A stretch of 64,000 nt of DNA from an uncultured Thermoplasmatales archaeon (GCA_964638175.1 CAZWZY010000007.1:2071-66070), one strand, 5' to 3'; positions 40,360 to 63,773 are shown, counted from the stretch's first letter. Numbers and translations: made by a program. The notes: a model not told the origin generated them from the sequence alone.

Positions 40360-40473
40360 GCAGGGGTAGCCAAGCCTGGCCAACGGCGCAGGACTTAAGA
40401 TCAAATCATCAGAAGGGTTCGAGGAGACATCCTGTCTCGAAGGAGTCCGAGGGTTCAAATCCCTTCCCCTGCA
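40360..40473 (+). tRNA. tRNA-Leu (anticodon TAA) with a 29-nt intron in the anticodon loop (about 40400-40428)
   Basis: It is a class II tRNA: acceptor GCAGGGG/CCCCTGC, D-arm GCC-13nt-GGC, anticodon stem CAGGA/TCCTG interrupted after CTTAAG, a long variable arm, and T-loop TTCAAAT. Confidence 0.75.
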
Positions 40474-50116: not shown

Positions 50117-50584
50117 ATGTCCTTATTTATGCAACAACGTAAAAAAGCCACGATCGTCTACCTATCGAAGATTCTTATTCCTGTCACGGTAGTGATAAGT
50201 CTATTTTTAGGAGGGATTGGCGCAGGTATTATTACCTTTGAACCGCCTGAAGAAGTAAGTAGCGAAGAAAAAGTTTCTGCGACGCTTGTTCTTGACTTTG
50301 GGGATGGAACACGCTATTCTACGGCGTTGACGATAGAAAACGCAACAGTGTTCGATGTATTGCTCGAACTAGAAAAACAGGGTGCCATCACTATCGAAAC
50401 AACATATTGGGAATCATTCGATAGCTATTCGGTGGACTCGATAATCTATAAAGATGTAGCATATGCTGGAGATGCTGGCCATTACTGGGCATTCTATGTA
50501 AATGGAGAAGCATCGATGCAGGGTGCAGATAAAGTCTATGTACATGACAATGACGTAATCGAATGGAAATTTGTAGGATTTTAG
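50117..50584 (+). CDS. DUF4430-domain (transcobalamin-like) protein with N-terminal membrane anchor
   Basis: It has LVLDFGDG....ENATVFDVL...YVNGE...GAD...D.I.W. Confidence 0.5.
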   Translation: MSLFMQQRKKATIVYLSKILIPVTVVISLFLGGIGAGIITFEPPEEVSSEEKVSATLVLDFGDGTRYSTALTIENATVFDVLLELEKQGAITIETTYWESFDSYSVDSIIYKDVAYAGDAGHYWAFYVNGEASMQGADKVYVHDNDVIEWKFVGF

Positions 50585-50639
50585 GAATAAAATAGAAAAC
50601 ATTTAAAAGAAGATTGCTATCACGATATGGGAGGACAAA

Positions 50640-51326
50640 ATGATAAAATATATGTTAGAGAATAGAGAAAGGATACTATTTGCTATGGCACTCATTGCTA
50701 TTGGATCGTTGATGAGAATACTGTTGCACAACAATCTTCCGGGTTCGCCATCTATGTATATTTCCATAAATGGGATGACTCAACCGATGTTTATGTTGGA
50801 CCTGTTTTTTGTTGTTGCCATCATATCTCTCTTGAGTGGAATGTTGCTTGGAGGATACTATACTTTTATTGTTCCTATTTTAACCATGGTAATCTCTGAT
50901 ATCATAATTGGTAACAATTGGATCTTACTGTTTACCTGGTCGGGTTTTGTGGTCCTTGGACTTATAGGCTATCTGCTTAAAACGAAAAAATGTTTAACAC
51001 TCAAACGCGTACCAACAATACTGGGAGCAGGTGTCGGAGGGATATTGTTGTACGACATCTGGACAAATTTTGGAACCTGGCTCGGTGGCTGGTATTCACA
51101 TACCTGGGCAGGTCTTGGACTCTGCTATACCAATGCATTGCCTTTTATGTTCTGGCATCTTCTATCAACAACACTCGCAATCACGCTTATCATTGTTCCC
51201 ATGATATATCTCAAGGAGCATAGGCTAACCATTCCTGATTTTCAGATCCAACCATCGGAGAGAAAGATATCACTTATTATACCAGCAGCATTAGTGATTT
51301 TGGCACTTATCAGCATTCTGGTGTAA
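50640..51326 (+). CDS. ECF-transporter S-component-like membrane protein
   Basis: It has 6 TM helices. It lies downstream of the DUF4430 gene, a pairing common with ECF S components. Confidence 0.4.
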   Translation: MIKYMLENRERILFAMALIAIGSLMRILLHNNLPGSPSMYISINGMTQPMFMLDLFFVVAIISLLSGMLLGGYYTFIVPILTMVISDIIIGNNWILLFTWSGFVVLGLIGYLLKTKKCLTLKRVPTILGAGVGGILLYDIWTNFGTWLGGWYSHTWAGLGLCYTNALPFMFWHLLSTTLAITLIIVPMIYLKEHRLTIPDFQIQPSERKISLIIPAALVILALISILV

Positions 51327-53119: not shown

Positions 53120-53944
53120 ATGGTTTACAAATGTGTGCACTATCCGTCTTTGCTTCACACTATCACTACTACAGACCATCTTTTTTCTGGAACGTATACG
53201 CTTGATCCCTACCAAAATTGTGAATTTAGATGTCGATATTGTGATTCGGCAGAAGATACAACGGTCTACATCAAAGCCAATGCTGTCGATCAATTACAGC
53301 AAGAACTACCTACGAAAAAAAAGGGAATGATTATCGTTGGATCTGTTCATGATCCATATCAACCAATAGAAGCATCGTATTGTCTTACACAATCCTTATT
53401 AAAAGTTATTAAAGAAGAGGAATTCCCCTGCCATATTCTTACCAAGTCCTCATTGATACTACGAGATATCGATGTACTCTCAACCATGAACGAATGTTTG
53501 GCCACTATAAGCATTCCTACACTAAATGAATCAATAACCAACATATTTGAAAAACGTGTGCCAACACCTAGCGAGCGGCTACAAGTTGTGCAAAAGTTGT
53601 CTAACTCTGGAGTGATTGCTGGAGTGGCTGTTATACCAATACTCCCCTTTATTGTAGAAAAAGAACTAGGAGGATTGGTCAAGGAAGCAAAAGATCACGA
53701 TGCGCACTACATCCTCCATAAACATCTTGAATTGAGAGGAGATCAAAAAGCCAAATACTTGGAAGTTATTAAAACATATTTTCCTCGTTTAATGTCGCAC
53801 TATGAGCAACTCTACAACAACCAATATATGCCACATAAAAAATATCTGCAGGACCTCGAGAATATGATGGCATCATATTGTAAACACTACAACATACCAA
53901 ATAAAATAGAGTCAGGGCATCGAGAAAAGACAGCGTTTAAATAG
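53120..53944 (+). CDS. Radical SAM enzyme, SPL-like (COG1533) family, paralog of 31438..32577 without the HhH tail
   Basis: It has NCEFRCRYCD (Cx3Cx2C). I chose the ATG at 53120, directly after the argS stop. The ORF-track start at 53048 overlaps argS. Confidence 0.55.
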   Translation: MVYKCVHYPSLLHTITTTDHLFSGTYTLDPYQNCEFRCRYCDSAEDTTVYIKANAVDQLQQELPTKKKGMIIVGSVHDPYQPIEASYCLTQSLLKVIKEEEFPCHILTKSSLILRDIDVLSTMNECLATISIPTLNESITNIFEKRVPTPSERLQVVQKLSNSGVIAGVAVIPILPFIVEKELGGLVKEAKDHDAHYILHKHLELRGDQKAKYLEVIKTYFPRLMSHYEQLYNNQYMPHKKYLQDLENMMASYCKHYNIPNKIESGHREKTAFK

Positions 53945-53964: not shown

Positions 53965-55053
53965 GTGAAACAAACATATCGTCTCGACTGCGTCTCTTGG
54001 GAAATCACCTTACGATGTAATTTACGATGTTTTCACTGTGAATTTTCTGCAGGAAAACCAGCCCCTGATGAATTAACGAAAGAAGAAGCATTGTCGCTTT
54101 GTGACGAACTGGCGGAATTAGGATGCAAACGCGTTATTTTGATGGGCGGAGAAGTTTTTCTACGAAAGGATTGGTATCAGATTGCGGAAAAAATCAAACA
54201 GCTACATATGGAAGTAGCATTTATTACTAATGGATATCTTCTCAATGATCGTTTGATTGAGCAATTACAGCACCTTCAACCGGCATTTATTGGAGTGAGC
54301 ATTGATGGGGGAACTGCTGAAACTCATGATAAAATACGGGGCATTGCGGGTTCCTTCGACCGAGCGCTTCACTTTGTCGATTACTGTATAAATGCGCATC
54401 TTCCTGTCATTGTTATTACTTCTGTCCACAAGCTCAATATTGCCGAGCTTCCTCTCTTAAGAGACATTCTTATCACTAGGGACCTTTTTCGTTGGGAGAT
54501 TCAAATTACAGATGTTGAGGGGCGATTTCCAAAAGACTATCTTGTTGATGAACATGAGTTCTATGAAGTTGGAAAATTCATCGCTTGCACTCAGAAGGAA
54601 TATCCAAAAGGGAAGCATGTTGTCAGTGGTGCCCACGACATGGGGTACAACTCCTCAGTATTGCCAGAGTTAACAGGGTTCCCTAGATGGACTGGTTGCC
54701 CCGCTGGCAAAACAATGATGGCGATTGAAAGTAATGGTGGCATTAAAGGATGTTCTGCGCAAACAGGCGATTTTGTTGAAGACAACATCAGAAATCGCAG
54801 TATTAAGAAAATCTGGAACGATCCACATTCGTTTGCCTACAACCGACAATTTACAAAACAGAATTTACAAGGATATTGTAGACAATGCAAATACGGAGAA
54901 ACATGCAAAGGAGGGTGTGTAGAAACGTCATATATGCTAACTGGTAATATACATGGTGATCCTTATTGTTTTCATCGAATTGAAGAAGAATCTAGAAAAT
55001 GCAATGAAAAAAAGACTCTGGCATCTGATTTGTTCCAAAATGAACAAATATAG
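53965..55053 (+). CDS. Radical SAM/SPASM-domain peptide-maturase-like enzyme 1
   Basis: It has an N-terminal CNLRCFHC (Cx3Cx2C at residues 18-25), a GGE-like SAM motif (MGGEVF), and a C-terminal Cys cluster (GCPAG...C...CRQCKYGETCKGGC). Confidence 0.75.
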   Translation: MKQTYRLDCVSWEITLRCNLRCFHCEFSAGKPAPDELTKEEALSLCDELAELGCKRVILMGGEVFLRKDWYQIAEKIKQLHMEVAFITNGYLLNDRLIEQLQHLQPAFIGVSIDGGTAETHDKIRGIAGSFDRALHFVDYCINAHLPVIVITSVHKLNIAELPLLRDILITRDLFRWEIQITDVEGRFPKDYLVDEHEFYEVGKFIACTQKEYPKGKHVVSGAHDMGYNSSVLPELTGFPRWTGCPAGKTMMAIESNGGIKGCSAQTGDFVEDNIRNRSIKKIWNDPHSFAYNRQFTKQNLQGYCRQCKYGETCKGGCVETSYMLTGNIHGDPYCFHRIEEESRKCNEKKTLASDLFQNEQI

Positions 55054-55113
55054 TGATTTTTATTTAAAAAAAAGCAAAATCTATTTATAGCGGAAAATAA
55101 TCAATTAGTTACT

Positions 55114-55329
55114 ATGCAAACCAAAAAAGACATCTATGAAATTGGGAAAGCACTCGGCTTGAATAAAAATGATATTGATGAGGTCTTATCGGCGAGTTTC
55201 CAAAGAAATGCAAATGCTGATGCTTCTGCAGATGTCTATAAAGCAGGCACTCGGTACGGAACCGTGAGCTCAGCTGACATCTATAAAGCCGGTACACGAT
55301 ACGGTACCATTAGTATCAACAATTTCTAG
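55114..55329 (+). CDS. Candidate RiPP precursor peptide A (leader + 2 tandem 15-aa core repeats)
   Basis: The 71-aa sequence is MQTKKDIYEIGKALGLNKNDIDEVLSASFQRNANADASA-DVYKAGTRYGTVSSA-DIYKAGTRYGTISINNF. Its leader is conserved with peptide B. Confidence 0.6.
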   Translation: MQTKKDIYEIGKALGLNKNDIDEVLSASFQRNANADASADVYKAGTRYGTVSSADIYKAGTRYGTISINNF

Positions 55330-55390
55330 AGGAACATAGTATCAAAAACAGTAACCTGTTTTGTTTATTTATAGATATAAAAAGGATGTG

Positions 55391-56444
55391 ATGCCCCATT
55401 CCCGATAAATACAAATATCCTCCTGGACAAGTTGTCTGGGAACTGACGCTTCGATGTAATTTACGTTGCATGCATTGTGGTTCTTCAGCAGGAAAAAATC
55501 GAGAAGATGAACTTACGACTGAAGAAGCATTATCCCTTTGTGAGGATCTTGCAAAACTCAATGCTCAAGAAGTTTGTTTAATGGGAGGAGAACCATTCAT
55601 TCGAAAGGATTGGTACATCATTGGTAAAAAAATCCGTGAATTGGGAATGAAGTTGATGGTTATTTCAAATGGATACAATATCAATAAAGATATTATTGAA
55701 AAACTGATAGAACTTCAACCTTATGCTGTCTCCACAAGTCTTGATGGTGCAACTGCTAAGATCCATGACCATATACGGGGAGTAAAGGGATCTTTTGACA
55801 AGGTCATGGAATATATTTCATTATCAAAAGAAGCAGGTCTTCCAACGACAGTTATCACTACTGTGAGTAAAATAAATTTCCATGAACTGCCGGGAATCAG
55901 AGATTTTTTGCTTGATAAGCGCATTGCATGGCAAATTCAAGTCGCTACTCCAGAAGGAAGATTTCCTAAAGAATATGCATTATCAAAAGAAGAGTACTAT
56001 TCTGTTGCATTATTTATTGCATCCATGCAGAAGAAATACAAAAAAGGAGAGCTTCCTGTTATTGGTGCTCACTGTTTTGGCTATCACTCAAGAAGGTTTC
56101 CCTCTCTTGGATTGTATCCAACCTGGATGGGATGCCCTGCAGGTATCGTCGTACTGAGTGTGAAGAGTAATGGCGATGTCATTGGTTGTCTTGCTGCACC
56201 AAATACGCTTATTGAAGGAAATATTCGAAAGAGAAGTATCATTGATATTTGGAATGACCCTAACGCGTTTTCTTATAATCGAAACTTCAAAATTGAGGAT
56301 TTAGGTGAAAACTGCAAAGGATGTAAATATGGTGAAACCTGTCGAGGGGGATGCTGCGGATTATCAATGGGATTTACAGGAGAAATCCACAACCATCCAT
56401 ATTGTTTCTATAAAATAGAACCAGAATTATTAGATGAACAGTAG
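55391..56444 (+). CDS. Radical SAM/SPASM enzyme 2 (start disrupted by apparent 1-nt insertion in a C4 run)
   Basis: The frame containing CNLRCMHC is open from 55392 but has no start codon. The ATG at 55391 is +1 out of frame: ATGCCCCATTCCC reads in frame, as M-P-I-P-D-K-Y..., only if one C is removed. The ORF-track start at 55470 would delete the first Cys of the motif. Confidence 0.6.
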
Positions 56445-56458
56445 AGAGAATAGAAAAT

Positions 56459-57493
56459 ATGGCCCAAACCATCTATAATAATCCAGATATTGTTGTATGG
56501 GAAGTTACGCTACAATGTAATCTCAAGTGTTTACATTGTGGCTCCTCTGCTGGAAAGACTCGGAAAGACGAACTTACTACCAAAGAAGCATTGCAGCTCT
56601 GTGATGATCTAGCTGATCTTCGGTTCAAAGGCATTGCTTTAATGGGCGGAGAAGTCTTTTTACGAAAGGATTGGAAGCTCCTTGCAAAAAAAATTAAAGA
56701 CCGGAGAATGAAGCTCTCCATCATCTCAAATGGATTTTTTGATCCCAAGAACATTATCTCTGATCTTGTCGACATAGGAGCTGATTGTGTTATGGTCGGC
56801 TTTGATGGGGCTTCCCCTGAAACACAAGACAAAATACGTGGGGTTAAAGGTTCCTTTACAAAAGCAGTTTCTTTTGTCCGTGCAGCAAAGAAAGCTGGAC
56901 TGACTATTGGGGTTATCACAACGGTGCATAAACTAAATTTCAATGAACTTCCTGCCATTCGGGATTTTGTACTTGCTGAAGAAGTTGATTGGCAAATTCA
57001 GCCAGCAACCGTTATTGGACGCTTTCCCAGAGAGTTAGTACTTTCTGACAAAGAATATTATGCTCTTGGCATCTTTATCCACTCGTTACAGAAGAAATAT
57101 GCAGAAAAGCCATTTACCATTGTTGGTGCCCATAATTTAGGATTTCATTCTCAACGCATTCCTCCCTTGAGTTTTTATCCTGAATGGGACGGATGTTATG
57201 CAGGGAAAACAGTGTTGGGCGTCCAGAGTAACGGAAATGTGAAGGGATGTCTTGCCATGTCTGATAAATTTACCGAAGGAAACCTTCGAGAAAAAAGTAT
57301 CAAAGAAATCTGGAATGACCCTAACGCGTTTTCTTATAATCGAAACTTCAAAATTGAGGATTTAGGTGAAAACTGCAAAGGATGTAAATATGGAGAAACA
57401 TGCAAAGGTGGTTGTACAACTCGATCAGACACACTTACAGGAAAACCACACAATGATCCGTTATGCTTTTTTCGATTTGAGAACAATCTTTAA
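56459..57493 (+). CDS. Radical SAM/SPASM enzyme 3
   Basis: It has CNLKCLHC at residues 20-27 and a C-terminal CKGCKYGETCKGGC. About 85 nt are identical with enzyme 2 near the C-terminus. Confidence 0.75.
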   Translation: MAQTIYNNPDIVVWEVTLQCNLKCLHCGSSAGKTRKDELTTKEALQLCDDLADLRFKGIALMGGEVFLRKDWKLLAKKIKDRRMKLSIISNGFFDPKNIISDLVDIGADCVMVGFDGASPETQDKIRGVKGSFTKAVSFVRAAKKAGLTIGVITTVHKLNFNELPAIRDFVLAEEVDWQIQPATVIGRFPRELVLSDKEYYALGIFIHSLQKKYAEKPFTIVGAHNLGFHSQRIPPLSFYPEWDGCYAGKTVLGVQSNGNVKGCLAMSDKFTEGNLREKSIKEIWNDPNAFSYNRNFKIEDLGENCKGCKYGETCKGGCTTRSDTLTGKPHNDPLCFFRFENNL

Positions 57494-57617
57494 GTTCCTA
57501 GTTGTTATAACAATTGTACAAAAGAAGCAAAATTCCGTCAAAAAACGTTGATTATAAGGAAAAGTATATATAACAACAAATTTATTTAATATTATAAATA
57601 AAATTGGTGAACAAGGT

Positions 57618-57872
57618 ATGAATAAGAAAATATATGCAATCGCAAAAAACCTTGGCCTGGAGAAAAAGGATGTTGATGGTGTGCTTTCTGGTGCAGCTTC
57701 ATCTCCAAGAAATGACAATGTTTCTGCAGATGTGTATAAAGCAGGAACTGAATATGGAACCGTTAGTGCCAAAGATGTGTATAAAGCAGGGACGTACTAC
57801 GGAACTGTAAGCTCAAAAGATCTCTATAAAGCAGGTACTTATTACGGGACCATAAGCGTCAAGGATTTTTAA
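57618..57872 (+). CDS. Candidate RiPP precursor peptide B (leader + 3 tandem 15-aa core repeats)
   Basis: The 84-aa sequence is MNKKIYAIAKNLGLEKKDVDGVLSGAASSPRNDNVSA-DVYKAGTEYGTVSAK-DVYKAGTYYGTVSSK-DLYKAGTYYGTISVKDF. Confidence 0.6.
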   Translation: MNKKIYAIAKNLGLEKKDVDGVLSGAASSPRNDNVSADVYKAGTEYGTVSAKDVYKAGTYYGTVSSKDLYKAGTYYGTISVKDF

Positions 57873-58002
57873 TATAAGATAAATATAAAATAACATGGCA
57901 ACAATACCGTTGCTCTCTTTTTTATTACGTTAGTGTAGCATAAAAATGTTGCAAGTATGCAACAGAGTATTTAAATTAGAGTACATCATAAGAGGGAAAA
58001 TC

Positions 58003-59190
58003 ATGAGCGACGATGAAAATCCGCTTGCCCAACCAGTTGTAATTAAAGGTGTACACATAAAAAATCGACTTGTTAAATCTGCAACACAAGAAAGCATGAC
58101 TGATGGACAAGGAGGTATTACGAATGCCTATAAAGAATACTATGAAAGGCTCAGTAGAGGCGGTGTAGGCCTCATCATTACTGGCCATATGTATGTAAAA
58201 GAAAACGGAAAACTCCCTGGAATGGTTGGTATTGAAAAGGATGAGCGGATTTCTCCGTTACGCCAAGTAATAAAATACGTACACCAGAATAATTCAGTAA
58301 TATTTGCTCAAGTAAATTACGCTAATCTAAAAAAAATTATTGAAAAAAAGTCTGGTAAAAAAGAGTGGTTACCAAACACGCTAAGTAAGGAGAGTATTGA
58401 AGAAATAATCGACTGTTTTGGAAAAGCCGCTGCTCGTATCAAAAAAGCTGGATTTGACGGGATACAACTTCATGCTGCCCATTCATATCTTTTGGCACAA
58501 TTTCTTTCAAAAAAAGTAAACCAGCGCCAAGATAAGTATGGTGGTAGCTTATCAAACAGGCAAAGACTCTGCCTTGAGGTGTATCAGGCTATTCGTGAGA
58601 GCGTTGGAGAAGAGTTCCCAGTAATAGTCAAACTCGATTCATACTCTCGCTCATTTGTGACAGTTCCCCCGCTTGTAAAGACGATTACTCTACAAGAATC
58701 GTTATATACAGCAAAAAAACTTGAAGAACGGGGGGTAGATGCCATTGAAGTGACGTGTTTTCTGGCTACTCGAGGGGCACTACCCTATAAACAAAAACAT
58801 ATCGATTGGTTGAAAACACAAGGAAAAGAAACAAGGGCAAACATAGTTGGTGTGCTCTTAACACCAATCGATTTAGTAATAAACCATCCACAGTGGTTTA
58901 AACCGCATCAGAATATTGCTCATATTAAAGCGTTTAAGCAGCATCTTCATATTCCTATCCTAGCAGGGAGTTGTTTTCGGGATCCCATTTATATGAAGAA
59001 GGTAATAACAAATAACGAAGCAGACATGATTTGTCTTGCCCGCCCCTTGATTTACGACCCTGATTTTCCAAATGCCATATTAAATGGAGATGAATCTCAC
59101 TCGAAATGTCGCAATTGTAATCTCTGCTCATTGTGTTTACCTCCAAATGAACGGCCCTTGTACTGTGTATACACTCAACGACATAAATAA
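58003..59190 (+). CDS. Old-yellow-enzyme-family NAD(P)H:flavin oxidoreductase (TIM barrel)
   Basis: It has OYE/2,4-dienoyl-reductase-like motifs (HMYV, HAAHSYLLAQFLS, KYGGSL). I used the internal start MSDDE. Confidence 0.65.
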   Translation: MSDDENPLAQPVVIKGVHIKNRLVKSATQESMTDGQGGITNAYKEYYERLSRGGVGLIITGHMYVKENGKLPGMVGIEKDERISPLRQVIKYVHQNNSVIFAQVNYANLKKIIEKKSGKKEWLPNTLSKESIEEIIDCFGKAAARIKKAGFDGIQLHAAHSYLLAQFLSKKVNQRQDKYGGSLSNRQRLCLEVYQAIRESVGEEFPVIVKLDSYSRSFVTVPPLVKTITLQESLYTAKKLEERGVDAIEVTCFLATRGALPYKQKHIDWLKTQGKETRANIVGVLLTPIDLVINHPQWFKPHQNIAHIKAFKQHLHIPILAGSCFRDPIYMKKVITNNEADMICLARPLIYDPDFPNAILNGDESHSKCRNCNLCSLCLPPNERPLYCVYTQRHK

Positions 59191-59205: not shown

Positions 59206-59958
59206 TTACTCAAATGATGAGTTACTTTTTATCTTTTCTGCTTTTGCAATAATGCTTGATCCAATAGGAAAATGAACCCTTGAGATAAGGGCACTTTCCA
59301 TCCCAAAGATGGTTTCTAACAGGTCATTTGTGGTAGGAAGGACAGGCGTCTGTTTTACTTCACTAGGTTTTGGTGGTTGTTTCCGTTGAATTTTCCGATT
59401 GAGGACATCCATGGGGAAGAGAAGACACATAAAATATGAAAGTGAGAGATTAGTAAACCCCGCCTCCAAAAGAAGAGTGCGCAGCCGCTTTACGGCATAT
59501 CGCCGAAAGTGATTGCTTCTCTCATCAATTTCTGTCCATAACCAGGGATGCGCAGGAACAGTCAGGAAACAATAGCCCTGCTTCTTCAATAGTTGGTTCC
59601 GAACAATTTGCAAAGCATGACTGTCGTCTTCTATATGTTCTAACACATCAAAGAGAGTAACAATATCATATCGGCGTTCTGGACATGTTTTTGGAAAAAA
59701 ACCCTTACCATAGATAGTTCTAATGCCTATTTGTTCTAACTGCTCATGCGTCGCTGTATGGGGTTCTATTGCGTCAACAGCACCAAATGTTTGTAGTGTG
59801 GGGAGCAATCCTCCATATCCGCTTCCAATGTCCAGTATCTCCAGATTCTTTGCGCAAATAAACCTCTTCATAAACGCATGAATAACTTTTCTTCTCCCGG
59901 TAAACCACCAATGATGAAACTGATATTGTTTAAATAATTCATATACGTCTTCTTGCAT
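59206..59958 (-). CDS. Class I SAM-dependent methyltransferase
   Basis: It has motif I LDIGSGYGGLL and the post-I acidic residue FDVLEH. Confidence 0.7.
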   Translation of the reverse strand: MQEDVYELFKQYQFHHWWFTGRRKVIHAFMKRFICAKNLEILDIGSGYGGLLPTLQTFGAVDAIEPHTATHEQLEQIGIRTIYGKGFFPKTCPERRYDIVTLFDVLEHIEDDSHALQIVRNQLLKKQGYCFLTVPAHPWLWTEIDERSNHFRRYAVKRLRTLLLEAGFTNLSLSYFMCLLFPMDVLNRKIQRKQPPKPSEVKQTPVLPTTNDLLETIFGMESALISRVHFPIGSSIIAKAEKIKSNSSFE

Positions 59959-60047: not shown

Positions 60048-62420
60048 TTAGACTGGATTGGTTAGCCAAGGATGAAAGAAGATACGGCTATCTGTAAACT
60101 TCCATGCAATTCTATTACTTTTTTGAAGACCAATGAATCGTGGTCCTAGTTTTCTTCCCCACCAATTGTTTTGCGCGTAGATAAAACAATCATGAGCATT
60201 TACTGCCATAATTCCCTTCTTATTCTTGCAAATATTATTATAATGGATATGAGTGTCATTCATATGAGATCCATTACCCATAAAAAAGATACCAGTTCCA
60301 GTATTTTCTGTGACATTGGAAAAGGAGATAACCGTGCCGCATGGTCCTTCAGTATCACTTGAAGTGAAGAACACACCAACACCATTCTTTGTAATGTCAC
60401 ATGCAGAAAAGATATTGTTATCGGAGTTGCGTTGAATATAAAACCCATAGCCAAACGTATTTAACGAAACGTGACACGAAGAGAACATATTATGAGACGA
60501 ATCTCTTATCTGTATGCCTTCTTCTTTGTTGTGTTGTGCTGTGATGGCAGTAAATTTGTTGTAATCAGAGAAGTCCAGAAAGATGCTCTCCTGATTGTAC
60601 GGAAGATCAGCATGCGAAACAACATTGTGTTGCGCATAAAGAAGATAGATTCCCTCTTTTTCGCTATGAGCTATATAACAGTTAAAGATATGATTATAGT
60701 GCCCATGATTGATTTCAATCCCATCCCAACAGCCGACAATGGTACAATTCTCGATACGGTTTCCATTGGTGTTTATTTTGATTCCTGCATCAAAATTACC
60801 GCTATGCTGAATCGTCATATTTGCAAGGATAACACCATCACTGTGAATGAAGATGGTGTCAGTGTTTCCACCACCATCAACAATAACAGTGTCTTGTTGT
60901 TCTCCAATCAATCGCAACGAACGAGGGATGTAGAGATTTTCTTGGTAGACTCCTGAGTAGATGAAAATGGTGTCTCCTTCAGATGCATGATCTATGGCAT
61001 CTTGGATATGGGAGTAATTGCCTGGGCCTACCCCACCAACATATAAGGTGGTAGTTGACCATTGATATGGAAAACTGTCGTTGAGTGAAGTGTCTGTACT
61101 ATGATGTGCATAGCTCTCACAGTCAAACGGCATAGGGGGCGGTGCATAACAGTTTATCGCTTCTAGAGACTTCAACCAAGGTCGGAAAAAAACATGACTG
61201 TTGACGCGATTCCAGATAATTTGTGAAGAGGTGGATAACCCAAATGTACTGGGAGATCGTTTTGACCCCCACCAATTGTTTTGTGCGTACACAATACCAT
61301 GGTTGATATTCCGCGCCAAAAGCCCTACGCCATTATGTACAATATTATTGAAATGCACATGCGTCTTTTTACTTAACGTTCCGTCACCCAGGAGGAGTAT
61401 TCCTGCCTCAAGATTATCTGTGATATTGTTTGAGAGAACCGTAGTGCTATTTCCTCCACCAAGAAAAACAGAACCAACAACAACACCAACGGCATTAGTG
61501 CTTATGTGACAATGTGAAATGTAGGTTTCATCTGATCCCCAATACACAAAGATGCCATACGCCTCATTTGAACAGATGGCATTGTGGTAAACAATATTTT
61601 TATCAGATGACTGTTCGAGTTCTATTCCCTCACCCTGATTGTTTTCGATACGGCAGTAGTGAATGACATTCTCCTGTGAATGTTCCATCAAGATACCATC
61701 AGCATTGTGGTAAACACGACATTGTTCTATGACATTGTGTGCAGAATCCAGTAAATAGATGCCGCTCCAACTATTGCATGCGATGTTACAGTTAAAGATA
61801 TGATTATAGTGCCCATGATTGATTTCAATCCCATCCCAACAGCCGACAATGGTACAATTCTCGATACGGTTTCCATTGGTGTTTATTTTGATTCCTGCAT
61901 CAAAATTACCGCTATGCTGAATCGTCATATTTGCAAGGATAACACCATCACTGTGAATGAAGATGGTGTCAGTGTTTCCACCACCATCAACAATAACAGT
62001 GTCTTGTTGTTCTCCAATCAATCGCAACGAACGAGGGATGTAGAGATTTTCTTGGTAGACTCCTGAGTAGATGAAAATGGTGTCTCCTTCAGATGCATGA
62101 TCTATGGCATCTTGGATATGGGAGTAATTGCCTGGGCCTACCCCACCAACATATAAGGTGGTGCCAGAACCCGTAAAAGAAGTAAGATTGTCATTGAAAA
62201 GAAAATATTCGCTGGGAAGCTCGTACTGTGATGCATCTGTAAGCTTATTACTAGGCAAGACAAAGGAAAGCTTTTCACGTAGTGCTGAGAGCACCGTAGT
62301 GAATCGTGAAAGCAGAGGAAATGATTCTTTCTCAGGGGTTTGTGGTTCCCCAAGACCACTTGAAGAAAACGACGTAAGAAGGAGGAAAACACAGATTCCT
62401 GCAATTAACATCCTTTTCAT
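60048..62420 (-). CDS. Secreted right-handed parallel beta-helix repeat protein with internal tandem duplication
   Basis: It has a signal peptide. It has repeated N..GI/H.N beta-helix rungs (NCTIVGCWDGIEINHGHYNHIFNC and similar). A 125-aa block is present twice. Confidence 0.7.
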   Translation of the reverse strand: MKRMLIAGICVFLLLTSFSSSGLGEPQTPEKESFPLLSRFTTVLSALREKLSFVLPSNKLTDASQYELPSEYFLFNDNLTSFTGSGTTLYVGGVGPGNYSHIQDAIDHASEGDTIFIYSGVYQENLYIPRSLRLIGEQQDTVIVDGGGNTDTIFIHSDGVILANMTIQHSGNFDAGIKINTNGNRIENCTIVGCWDGIEINHGHYNHIFNCNIACNSWSGIYLLDSAHNVIEQCRVYHNADGILMEHSQENVIHYCRIENNQGEGIELEQSSDKNIVYHNAICSNEAYGIFVYWGSDETYISHCHISTNAVGVVVGSVFLGGGNSTTVLSNNITDNLEAGILLLGDGTLSKKTHVHFNNIVHNGVGLLARNINHGIVYAQNNWWGSKRSPSTFGLSTSSQIIWNRVNSHVFFRPWLKSLEAINCYAPPPMPFDCESYAHHSTDTSLNDSFPYQWSTTTLYVGGVGPGNYSHIQDAIDHASEGDTIFIYSGVYQENLYIPRSLRLIGEQQDTVIVDGGGNTDTIFIHSDGVILANMTIQHSGNFDAGIKINTNGNRIENCTIVGCWDGIEINHGHYNHIFNCYIAHSEKEGIYLLYAQHNVVSHADLPYNQESIFLDFSDYNKFTAITAQHNKEEGIQIRDSSHNMFSSCHVSLNTFGYGFYIQRNSDNNIFSACDITKNGVGVFFTSSDTEGPCGTVISFSNVTENTGTGIFFMGNGSHMNDTHIHYNNICKNKKGIMAVNAHDCFIYAQNNWWGRKLGPRFIGLQKSNRIAWKFTDSRIFFHPWLTNPV
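60678..61052. repeat. Direct repeat copy A (about 375 bp, identical to 61788-62162)
   Basis: The identical DNA makes the same 88-aa plus-strand ORF appear at 60471..60956 and 61800..62066. The period is about 1110 bp and it lies in frame inside the beta-helix gene. Confidence 0.8.
61788..62162. repeat. Direct repeat copy B
   Basis: See copy A. The boundaries were read manually and may be off by 1-2 nt. Confidence 0.8.
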
Positions 62421-63773
62421 CTACACCTCACCCGGAGCAGTTCCATTGACAGAGAAATAGACTGTCATGTTTCTTGATGGTGCTGAGTAGACATACACGC
62501 CAATATTGTTTTCACTGCCGTCATACCATCGACTATTACAGGGGAACGAATTACTGTGAAAACCATAGGTAGAGTTATCCCAAAAATCAAATTCGTCTCC
62601 CTGATTTTTATTTGCATCAAGATCATCTGCATCCTTAAAATGGGAAGAGAATGAATCAGCACATTCGATATCAATCATTTTGTGATATTCAACATCATTA
62701 ACTCCAGGAAACCACGTTCTTGGACGTAACGGACGTGGAATCGACTCATCAATATGATAGATAGCAATACCTTCATCGGGCAATGGAGACGTACCGTTGT
62801 CGTATGATGTGCCTCGAAAGCGGTTTTCTACCAAGAAATATTCATCTGAAGAATGGGAAGGATCTTGCAAGATAAATGCTTCAGGACACGTTTCTGAATC
62901 GTGAATAACGTACCATCCATCTTCTGTGACAACAGTTGGTTCAATCCATCCAAGCTGTATTTTTTCCCAAGCAGTAAAATGATGACCGTTGATGCCATCA
63001 AGATTTCCATTTCCCATAAGGCTATAGACACCAAGACCTTGTGATTTTCTGGTATAATCATAAAAATCAGGTAATTGCAACGTATGCCCTAATTCATGAG
63101 CAAAAACCATCCATGATTGCCACTCTTGCAATACACTATGTTCCCCACTAAGGATCATTCCATCCCATGTTTTTACTCCTAATGTTCCCCATAATCGCCA
63201 GTTGTGATACGCACCTCTTGGTTTTTCTTCCGATAGTGCTGAAGTACACACAAGAATAGCAAGCTCATCATCGGTAAGAATACCATCTCCATTGTCATCA
63301 TAGGATGCAAAGGAAAAGGACCTATCTCGTGCTGCTTTTCTGAACGCTTCTCGGACAATGCCATCTCGTGAGAATTCTTTTAAGGGATGATGGGAAGTAT
63401 ACCACCCTAAAATCCCTGCTTTCGTGAAGGTGAATTTTCCGTATGATGTTTCTTGATAGTAATCACGTACACTCGGCTTGTCACCGAACAACAGATGGTC
63501 AAAATAGGCAATATCGTGATCTGGATGATGTGGAACGTCAGAGAATTCAACAAGCAGAAGTAAGAGAGGGCATTCTCCCAACGCTATAGGAATACTTGGA
63601 AAAGGAAGAATCTTATTGTAAAATAGCAATGAAACTCTTCGAAGCAGAGGAAAGGTGTTTAAAATACTAGAAGAGGGGGTGCCTGTTTCATGAGCCATCA
63701 CGGATGGTACTACAGAAGTAAGAAACAGGAGAATAACCGTTAATACTACACATACTCTACTGATGTTCTTCAT
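62421..63773 (-). CDS. Secreted zinc metalloprotease, M6 (InhA-like) family signature
   Basis: It has a signal peptide. It has HELGHTLQLPDFYD (HExxH plus the downstream G..D.YD typical of M6 immune-inhibitor-A-like peptidases). It is contiguous with the beta-helix gene. Confidence 0.6.
   Translation of the reverse strand: MKNISRVCVVLTVILLFLTSVVPSVMAHETGTPSSSILNTFPLLRRVSLLFYNKILPFPSIPIALGECPLLLLLVEFSDVPHHPDHDIAYFDHLLFGDKPSVRDYYQETSYGKFTFTKAGILGWYTSHHPLKEFSRDGIVREAFRKAARDRSFSFASYDDNGDGILTDDELAILVCTSALSEEKPRGAYHNWRLWGTLGVKTWDGMILSGEHSVLQEWQSWMVFAHELGHTLQLPDFYDYTRKSQGLGVYSLMGNGNLDGINGHHFTAWEKIQLGWIEPTVVTEDGWYVIHDSETCPEAFILQDPSHSSDEYFLVENRFRGTSYDNGTSPLPDEGIAIYHIDESIPRPLRPRTWFPGVNDVEYHKMIDIECADSFSSHFKDADDLDANKNQGDEFDFWDNSTYGFHSNSFPCNSRWYDGSENNIGVYVYSAPSRNMTVYFSVNGTAPGEV

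Follow-up and report, generated by a model that had tools for sequence, protein, structure and literature searches.

We describe here a gene cluster at positions 53965-57872 of a 64,000-nucleotide stretch of DNA from an uncultured Thermoplasmatales archaeon (GCA_964638175.1 CAZWZY010000007.1:2071-66070), hereafter the window, with all positions counted from its first letter. Its five open reading frames (ORFs), all on the plus strand in the ORF listing, encode three paralogous radical S-adenosylmethionine (SAM)/SPASM enzymes, E1, E2 and E3, interleaved with two short peptides made of a leader and tandem repeats. From its sequence, the locus is very likely a conserved gene cluster for a ribosomally synthesized peptide with post-translational modifications (RiPP) in a Thermoplasmatota archaeon, one of a family found mostly in Thermoplasmatota. 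A short leader-plus-core gene lies beside a maturase gene, which is how such clusters are recognized, and other genomes preserve this arrangement. The window alone had already suggested an undescribed locus of RiPP type with this composition (the sequence-only reading), and domain matches, the lack of a RiPP recognition element, ratios of nonsynonymous to synonymous substitution (dN/dS) and conserved co-occurrence all bear the proposal out. The family is unnamed in the literature and libraries that we searched. In the protein database, E1, E2 and E3 go by just 'radical SAM protein' or 'radical SAM/SPASM domain-containing protein'. The literature on archaeal RiPPs, radical SAM enzymes, Thermoplasmata and spliceotides, taken without the splicease survey of Scott et al. 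(Chem 2022), does not describe the family, and that on TIGR03913, TIGR04103 and the 'GDL motif' contained nothing relevant to it.

The two precursor peptides have the leader motif KK(D)IY.I.K.LGL.K.D[IV]D.VLS in common, followed by a spacer and then by 15-residue units of the form [DE][VIL]-Y-K-A-G-T-X-Y-G-T-[VI]-S-x-K. The core of peptide 1 (55231-55326) consists of the units DVYKAGTRYGTVSSA and DIYKAGTRYGTISIN and a final NF. In the core of peptide 2 (57729-57869) the residue X is E, Y and Y, and the terminus reads ...YGTISVKDF; Tandem Repeats Finder reports a 45-nt period with 2.9 copies and 77% matches there (57728-57858). The units differ at synonymous sites in a codon comparison, so the repeat is kept by selection at the protein level and does not stem from recent DNA duplication. 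Judged by dN/dS values of 0.08-0.26 in six pairwise comparisons within four ortholog groups (0.26 for peptide 1 against its orthologs in loci L007 and L073, 0.18-0.20 for peptide 2), the short ORFs are genuine genes under purifying selection. For peptide 2, AlphaFold2 predicts two leader helices, at residues 3-11 and 16-27 (predicted local distance difference test, pLDDT, 77-82), and a disordered core; a helical leader and a disordered core are typical of RiPP precursors.

The public collection contains a protein identical to peptide 1 (P0020), and a search with peptide 2 returned 21 homologs of 58-99 residues, none of them named; leader and YKAGT.YGT core are both retained in their alignment. 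A further 105 loci (cited below by L numbers) came from genome scans with the enzymes and metagenome scans with the peptides, and hidden Markov model (HMM) searches of the six-frame ORFs in the fetched loci yielded some 100 different peptides, which carry between 1 and 7 units. Among 1.84 billion representative proteins, a profile of the peptides matched 118 clusters at 50% identity (E <= 1e-3). No model of Pfam or NCBIfam matched the window peptides. Cysteine is absent from both of them and is rare and unconserved across the peptide family.

All three enzymes match the radical SAM model PF04055 (E 5e-23 to 5e-27) and the SPASM model PF13186 (E 2e-10 to 4e-8) above the Pfam gathering scores, and their pairwise identities are 47-56%. 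Invariant among them is the CxxxCxxC motif of the SAM-binding 4Fe-4S cluster, which reads CNLRCFHC, CNLRCMHC and CNLKCLHC; because its first cysteine is already reached at residue 18-22, none of the enzymes has an N-terminal RiPP recognition element (RRE) domain. In the C-terminal part, seven cysteines (C245, C263, C305, C308, C314, C318 and C335 in E1 numbering) are invariant in the three paralogs and 52 homologs; the SPASM motif has seven cysteines, which hold two auxiliary 4Fe-4S clusters. Most of this had been read correctly from the sequence beforehand: the leader common to both peptides with its two or three tandem YKAGT.YGT units, the CNL[RK]C.HC motif near an N-terminus free of an RRE-like extension, the expected matches to PF04055 and PF13186, and the lack of cysteine in the cores, which excludes thioether classes such as the sactipeptides and ranthipeptides. 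The description of the SPASM tail was right about its cysteines and needs correcting in one detail, as the GCPAG given for all three enzymes is GCYAG in E3.

The AlphaFold2 model of E3 (pLDDT 93.6) shows strands alternating with helices over residues 11-223, as expected of the beta/alpha core. Its nearest solved structures are PqqE, SkfB, BlsE, SuiB, CteB and anSME, and it superposes on their catalytic and SPASM/twitch parts. PqqE is the best match in the PDB both by fold and by sequence (E 4.9e-16). The fold search with this model yields generic SPASM/twitch enzymes and does not tell their chemistries apart. On the minus strand inside E3 lies a 161-residue ORF (56473-56958) that repeats in 15 related loci; we rejected it as a gene, as it recurs only as the mirror of the conserved enzyme gene.

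Table 1. Features of the cluster and its surroundings in the window.
Feature	Position	Strand	Remarks
Fourth radical SAM gene	53120..53944	+	PF04055 E 4e-12; no SPASM; ends 20 nt 5' of E1
E1	53965..55053	+	Radical SAM/SPASM maturase, 362 residues, GTG start; ortholog group confined to multi-unit precursors
Precursor peptide 1	55114..55329	+	71 residues; leader residues 1-39; two units
Shine-Dalgarno-like AGGATGTGAT	55383..55392	+	5' of E2; final base five bases ahead of the ATT at 55398
E2	55398..56444	+	Radical SAM/SPASM maturase, about 348 residues, probable ATT start; ancestral E2 group
E3	56459..57493	+	Radical SAM/SPASM maturase, 344 residues; ancestral E3 group
Precursor peptide 2	57618..57872	+	84 residues; leader residues 1-37; three units
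Terminator-like hairpin and T-run	57897..57924	+	25 nt 3' of peptide 2; from a consensus scan only
Old yellow enzyme (OYE)/flavin mononucleotide (FMN) oxidoreductase	57946..59190	+	Cys-rich C-terminus; PF00724 E 4e-53
SAM-dependent methyltransferase	59206..59958	-	PF13489 E 2e-15; adjacent in the window lineage only
Secreted right-handed beta-helix (NosD-like) protein	60048..62420	-	PF13229 and PF05048 matches
M6-like zinc metallopeptidase	62421..63773	-	HELGH motif, N-terminal hydrophobic segment; PF05547 E 2.5e-7

In loci with enough contig, peptides usually stand beside homologs of the window enzymes, and peptide and enzymes adjoin each other in L001, L004, L007, L073, L075, L078, L084, L085, L087, L091 and L095. 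Flanking genes and gene order vary between lineages. With p for a precursor, the order is E1-p-E2-E3-p in the window, L007 and L073, and also in L078, where the contig end cuts the last precursor; it is E3-p-E1-E2 in L004, E3-p-E1-p-E2 in L085 and L091, and E1-p-E2-(C11 peptidase)-E3 in L001, the peptidase within this last cassette being of the clostripain family. The sequence-only reading had named co-occurrence of peptide and enzyme in other genomes as a check and loss of the short ORFs from related loci as a refutation. Co-occurrence was found in many independent contigs, with varied flanks and shuffled order, and the related loci have kept the short ORFs.

A neighbour-joining tree built from 110 enzymes divides the window paralogs among three orthologous groups, E1, E2 and E3, all of which have group-specific fixed residues (HCEF in E1 as against HCGS in E2 and E3 is an example), and within one archaeal clade these paralogs are each other's closest relatives. 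The peptides beside two-enzyme clusters of E2 and E3 (L010, L013, L015-L018 and L020) have just one core, at the C-terminus: GPxxYxxxxYGTISIKDF. All 12 multi-unit loci with sufficient contig carry E1, and none of the six single-unit E2-E3 loci does. Because E1 occurs only beside multi-unit peptides, E2 and E3 are the ancestral pair, and E1 was recruited as the units multiplied. The final unit of multi-unit peptides keeps the ancestral ISIKDF ending and the internal units end in S[SP]KD[VIL]; E1 may perhaps act on the internal ones. The earlier suggestion that three enzymes mean up to three modifications per unit is too simple, as E2 and E3 also serve single-unit peptides and E1 tracks tandem units. 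Four loci (L013, L015, L016 and L018) carry three different single-core peptides each, and some metagenome-assembled genomes (MAGs) contain several distinct clusters. Further afield, single-enzyme relatives adjoin longer precursors in L024, L030, L033 and L035 (Aenigmatarchaeota, Undinarchaeota, Hodarchaeota and an uncultured archaeon). These DPANN and Asgard precursors combine a leader of the same type with one or two transmembrane segments, [GS]YP[FY][AS] and a C-terminal x-Y-[GND]-[VA]-[FY]-x-[KR]R, and could serve this enzyme superfamily as substrates anchored in the membrane.

Several variants of the precursor genes were also seen. Between E3 and the three-unit precursor, L007 (7043-7135) and L073 (5647-5730) have a leader-only ORF, MYAIAKSLGLEKKDVDG.LSGAS..., which is probably a decayed duplicate precursor; the window has no such remnant, and its gap from E3 to peptide 2 is merely 124 nt. 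P0169, a protein of 174 residues from the representative search, joins three full leader-plus-single-core modules head to tail in one ORF and so multiplies the unit otherwise than the tandem cores of the window do. A leaderless ORF of 24 residues, MKVIDLYKAGTYYGTVSIRDFIYD, similar to the consensus single unit, occurs in two IMG/VR contigs of 36.8 and 50.6 kb (L112, 5989-6063, and L113, 2230-2304); it lies in a predicted head-tail virus, 1.2 kb 5' of the large terminase gene (phrog_38, E 7.6e-88). A search of viral contigs for enzyme homologs found none. Similar leaderless mini-ORFs (MKKENKSSNIYKAGTYYGTISIKDFEID) lie 5' of E3 on the opposite strand in L089 and L091, and L106 has the mini-ORF on a contig without any enzyme gene. 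The viral copy of the unit, which has no leader, may point to a part for the peptide in the interplay of virus and host.

To which known maturases the enzymes are closest was judged from the 25 best NCBIfam matches of each. The best and second-best models for all three are TIGR03913 (GDL motif peptide-associated radical SAM/SPASM maturase, rad_SAM_trio; 214-236 bits, cut-off 591.75) and TIGR04103 (nif11-class peptide radical SAM maturase 3; 188-203 bits, cut-off 725), each matched in one stretch over nearly the whole protein; E1 scores 220.7 and 203.1 bits, respectively. The AhbD, NirJ and AhbC models come third to sixth (130-166 bits, cut-offs 500-650, E 1e-39 to 1e-48). The MftC model (122-129 bits, cut-off 265), the PqqE model (101-104 bits, cut-off 381) and those of WgkB and DynA (70-139 bits) are also in the lists; triceptide maturase models, TIGR04517 (PoyD family) and epipeptide models are not among the 25 best matches of any of the three. 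Because no cut-off is reached, E1, E2 and E3 belong to no curated family. We take TIGR04103 to be the PlpX splicease family from the matching names, and the 'trio' of TIGR03913 presumably refers to three paralogs per locus with small peptides; we know of no characterised function for TIGR03913 proteins. The enzymes' bacterial relatives, 35-45% identical, stand at an equal distance from both models.

All five units in the window carry X-Y-G (RYG, RYG, EYG, YYG and YYG). In a set of 198 units, selected with a pattern in which both tyrosines are fixed and several nearby positions restricted, G comes after Tyr7 in 183 units and A in 14, and K2, G4, G8, T9 and S11 are more than 90% conserved. Position X6, just before Y7-G8, has the highest entropy of the unit (3.37 bits, with less than 1 bit at each of positions 2-5 and 8-9) and holds R, Y, K, E, D, I, H, F, W, L and other residues, the pattern that would be expected if X gave a ketoamide warhead its side chain. 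Peptides with repeated X-Y-[G/A] sites also lie directly 5' of the enzymes in the bacterial relatives: LLYGIIEP twice in L032, PLYGVP in L039, LLYGIMPP in L042, [ILV]RYAGP three times per peptide in L034 and L038, and LKYAPGP twice in L041. By their sequence, these sites resemble the PlpA splice tags GPIRPLYGLPI and AVAAGYGVVFPG (PMC10533398).

Because TIGR04103 is the second-closest model and every unit is X-Y-G with a hypervariable X, we add tyramine splicing to the candidate reactions considered earlier. Tyrosine is probably the reactive residue. That the RiPP cluster uses leader-helix-guided, tyrosine-directed radical chemistry, of splicease type for at least one paralog, seems to us an evenly balanced proposition, and tyramine splicing at X-Y-G, which we hold with somewhat less than even confidence, would be the single most likely reaction for at least one of the enzymes. 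Under this proposal the leader helix would dock directly on the enzymes, as in binary spliceotide systems without a Y/RRE protein, and the disordered core would thread into the active site. Splicease-type excision of a tyramine equivalent at each X-Y-G (-135.07 Da per unit) would then leave a ketoamide with a variable side chain in every unit. The ketoamide is a known protease-inhibitor pharmacophore. The remaining paralogs would act on the second invariant Tyr (Y-K-A-G-T) or on internal units, the OYE-family flavoenzyme encoded next to the cluster would tailor the product, and the nearby M6-like peptidase could process it.

The known spliceotide systems allow this proposal to be judged more closely. 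PlpX is the founding splicease, a radical SAM/SPASM enzyme that acts on Nif11-type precursors at X-Y-G (PMC10849128, PMC11002830, PMC9811515); it is assigned to InterPro family IPR026482 (PMC11002830), and the splicing chemistry has been described (PMC9811515, PMC10533398). As in the window, both the type I system of Pleurocapsa (PlpX/PlpY/PlpA) and the binary type II systems of Rheinheimera (RhaX/RhaA, RcsX/RcsA) have a radical SAM maturase with a SPASM domain and precursors with one or more X-Y-G sites of variable X. The binary systems lack a separate Y/RRE protein, and the enzyme is reported or proposed to bind the leader helix instead (PMC11414181). Likewise, no gene for a Y/RRE partner was found in 53965-57872, where the two peptides are the only other ORFs conserved in related loci. 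The window system nevertheless differs from spliceotides in its archaeal host, in a new leader family that is neither Nif11 nor NHLP, in a core of 1 to 7 units of 15 residues that each hold another invariant Tyr together with invariant Lys, Thr and Ser, in having two or three paralogous enzymes rather than one, and in the occurrence of Y-A sites; its enzymes are, by their TIGR04103 scores, at best distant relatives of PlpX. The comparison with TIGR03913 shows a similar distance: the model has 477 positions, of which the window enzymes match only 13-362, the window peptides have no GDL motif, and the archaeal triplication arose inside the archaeal clade and hence independently.

Several points weigh against splicing. 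E1, E2 and E3 score far under the cut-offs of both leading models, and TIGR03913 scores slightly above TIGR04103 for each. The case for splicing is drawn wholly from sequence and equates TIGR04103 with the PlpX family on the matching names. G8 is Ala in 14 of the 198 units and also in the RYAGP and KYAPGP relatives, and in related precursors from bacteria and from DPANN and Asgard archaea Tyr is followed by A, N, D or P. Basal single-enzyme relatives in Thermoplasmata keep the leader and [IS]S[IP]xDF without conservation of YG, which stands at that place in one of five (L012, VTYGT). The element common to the relatives is usually Tyr and not Tyr-Gly, with L105 (4650-4865) as an exception that has no Tyr beside ISIxDF. 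Finally, X-Y-G would need just one splicease. Conservation of two or three paralogs implies at least two reactions, and reactions of a further or another kind are indicated by the second invariant Tyr and by the invariant Lys, Thr and Ser.

The chief alternative to splicing is crosslinking, in which the enzymes of the RiPP cluster would form C-C or C-O bonds from the Tyr rings to Lys, Thr or Ser within the unit; we regard it as possible though rather unlikely. The bonds could involve the three-residue motifs Y-G-T or Y-K-A, which could formally fit the aromatic-X-X motif of triceptides, or Y1-T5, and triceptides, darobactin/dynobactin, streptide and rotapeptides would be the precedents. The enzymes of streptide (SuiB), sacti- and ranthipeptides (SkfB, CteB, PapB), darobactin/dynobactin, WGK peptides and triceptides are leader-dependent radical SAM/SPASM or twitch crosslinkers, and the two invariant Tyr, the invariant Lys, the two near-invariant Thr and the Ser of each unit are compatible with such links. 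So are three subfunctionalised paralogs, the tolerance of G or A after Tyr7 followed by T, S, A or V, all with a C-beta hydrogen, and the retention of ISIxDF instead of YG in basal relatives. SuiB, SkfB and CteB are among the nearest solved folds, and the WgkB and DynA models appear in the match lists; however, models of crosslinking enzymes lie well below TIGR03913 and TIGR04103, and those of triceptide maturases are missing from the best matches. SuiB, CteB and SkfB also have an N-terminal extension that the window enzymes lack (383-440 residues in the matched chains as against 344 in E3), which in SuiB and CteB is an RRE domain. A hypervariable X before Tyr-Gly has no obvious role in ring formation, and the bacterial relatives flank precursors that resemble classical splice sites. 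It is improbable that one or more of the paralogs are radical SAM epimerases, which would convert L- to D-residues in a mass-neutral reaction as PoyD/OspD or YydG/EpeE do: neither TIGR04517 nor the epipeptide models are among the best matches of any enzyme, and the three paralogs are closest to each other within one archaeal clade. What speaks for epimerization is that epimerases co-occur with spliceases in proteusin-type clusters (PMC11002830), that EpeE is among the structural neighbours of the E3 model, at ranks 42-50, and that the conserved V/I and S of the repeated units would be plausible sites.

The peptides could also be sacrificial precursors of a redox cofactor or metabolite, following the logic of pyrroloquinoline quinone (PQQ) and mycofactocin, with a Tyr fragment excised and tandem units raising the yield. 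PqqE and MftC are likewise radical SAM/SPASM enzymes that target the Tyr of a small precursor, their models are in the match lists, PqqE is the best structural match, and in mycofactocin loci, as in the window, an OYE-family flavoenzyme is adjacent; the window's flavoenzyme scores 169-185 bits with OYE models of the mycofactocin system. A unit whose invariant parts flank one variable residue would also suit such a use. Yet the MftC and PqqE models stay under their cut-offs and under the two top models, there is no RRE partner of PqqD/MftB type, and in place of a single invariant precursor there are diverse, multi-copy and multi-unit ones, with several different genes per cluster (three in four of the loci), several distinct clusters in some MAGs, and an X and spacers that diversify as in natural-product precursors. 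We consider a cofactor precursor quite improbable. Least credible of all is the absence of any peptide system, with AhbD/NirJ-type haem enzymes or anSME-type enzymes beside short ORFs that arose by chance. The AhbD, NirJ and AhbC matches reflect generic radical SAM/SPASM similarity, together with an equal two-domain architecture and a similar length, and they score below the peptide-maturase models as well as below their own cut-offs. Orthology to anSME, AhbD or NirJ, which the sequence-only reading had named as grounds for abandoning its proposal, was not seen. The window enzymes are strictly tied to precursor peptides, and these, as described above, are under purifying selection, exist in some 100 variants and, where the contig is long enough, lie beside the enzymes in most loci. 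The vicinity holds no haem-pathway genes, the neighbours being genes for arginyl-tRNA synthetase (ArgRS), the OYE, a methyltransferase, a beta-helix protein and a peptidase. On cut-offs and genomic context we rejected the haem/AhbD and anSME assignments, which are effectively refuted.

It is tempting to go one step beyond splicease-type chemistry in one paralog and to suggest, tentatively, a new and mainly archaeal RiPP class. Its three subfunctionalised splicease-like paralogs would perform different tyrosine-centred reactions on each 15-residue unit, combining tyramine excision at X-Y-G with at least one undescribed reaction, either in the Y-K-A-G-T half or, through E1, on internal units. 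If this suggestion is true, the products would bear up to seven ketoamide warheads with differing side chains, and in sediment Thermoplasmatota they could control extracellular proteolysis or act against competitors or viruses. To our knowledge, very few archaeal RiPPs are characterised, and we know of no archaeal radical SAM RiPP with defined chemistry. The family is widespread in uncultured Thermoplasmatota and has relatives in DPANN and Asgard archaea; its architecture is clean, with small RRE-free enzymes and short precursors, and it offers a natural experiment in subfunctionalisation, with two enzymes for one unit and a third when units multiply. Splicing of X-Y-G would extend backbone beta-amino-acid formation to archaea and would provide multi-site, leader-helix-dependent spliceases for peptide engineering as well as multi-warhead ketoamide protease inhibitors. 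If X-Y-G is not spliced, the enzymes probably carry out new tyrosine chemistry.

The 5' end of E2 deserves a separate comment. The spans given for E1 and E3 in the sequence-only reading are correct; the start of E2 at about 55391 is not, as the ATG at 55391 is out of the E2 frame. This frame opens at 55392, directly 3' of an in-frame TGA (55389-55391), and a search for an in-frame ATG, GTG or TTG 5' of the CxxxCxxC motif found none. Automatic gene calls begin E2 at the ATG at 55470 and lose two of the three cluster cysteines; E2 of L001, called from a Leu codon, likewise looks deprived of cluster cysteines. Among 26 E2 orthologs compared, the window, L007 and L073 have ATT as third codon behind the TGA; L001 has ATC and L092 ATG at that place. 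Because this codon, at 55398 in the window, lines up with the ATG start of most other E2 orthologs, we prefer a near-cognate start, and E2 probably begins at the ATT (AUU) at 55398. The start usually lies ten residues before a conserved V/I-W-E, and eleven or more before it in a few orthologs. The AGGATGTGAT upstream may serve as the ribosome-binding site of E2, and GGATGTGATG, which contains the TGA that opens the frame, is kept in six E2 orthologs of the window's subclade. The ATG within GGATGTGATG opens an ORF of 4-5 codons that is ended by a stop in the window, L007 and L001. A programmed +1 frameshift was rejected, as the third codon, ATT, ATC or ATG, aligns with the ATG start of the other orthologs. 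Recoding of the TGA was rejected too, since TGA closes six of the 37 long ORFs in the window and is an ordinary stop in this genome. There is a lesson for annotation here: gene callers shorten E2 into an apparently dead enzyme, and most databases neither call nor name the precursors.

The genes around the cluster include several that could take part in the pathway. The product of the fourth radical SAM gene, upstream of E1, resembles the Rv2578c/PA0069 families (about 127 bits in NCBIfam, under the cut-offs), and a counterpart of this gene also neighbours the L007, L073 and L105 clusters; it is possibly an accessory gene, with uncertain membership. The hairpin 3' of peptide 2 likely marks the end of the operon; a sigma-70 promoter scan is uninformative for an archaeon. 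Two lineages share the OYE gene as a neighbour, one with three loci (window, L007 and L073) and the other with two (L085 and L091), and the OYE/FMN oxidoreductase is a probable tailoring enzyme; whether the methyltransferase belongs to the cluster is uncertain. The M6-like peptidase is 58% identical to a neighbour of the cluster in L001 and is also found in L085, and it is a candidate processing protease or functional partner. Family-wide, the recurrent neighbours are a PaaK/F390-synthetase-like ligase (11 loci), a methyltransferase-tetratricopeptide repeat protein (nine), a B12-binding radical SAM protein (eight) and the OYE (five), which are typical genes of tailoring type. The beta-helix gene is present in five loci (window, L001, L007, L018 and L073) and may have a functional tie to the cluster. 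This gene contains a 300-nt direct repeat of 99-100% identity (60670-60969 and 61780-62079, 1110 nt apart), and its 790-residue product has two near-identical segments of about 130 residues, from a recent internal duplication or an assembly artefact.

The gene content of the window is archaeal, with an intron-containing tRNA, a thermosome gene and DUF835 signalling proteins. The tRNA (40360-40473) spans 114 nt and matches a 71-position tRNA model end to end, which implies an intron; it was not called by ARAGORN. Among public sequences, the locus has its nearest relatives in MAGs that bear the labels Thermoplasmatota, Thermoplasmata or Thermoplasmatales, and JAFGDG010000039 is the best of them (87% identity in E1). 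Upstream of the ArgRS gene, a DUF4430 protein and a DUF6580 membrane protein are encoded at 50117-51326; no link between them and the cluster was found. The G+C content steps near 26 kb from about 0.30 (positions 1-26000) to about 0.40 (26000-64000). The low-G+C part encodes a P-type ATPase, a permease and PAS/DUF835 signalling proteins and the high-G+C part the thermosome, DnaK and ArgRS, all ordinary cellular genes, and the step could reflect a genomic island or a chimeric MAG contig.

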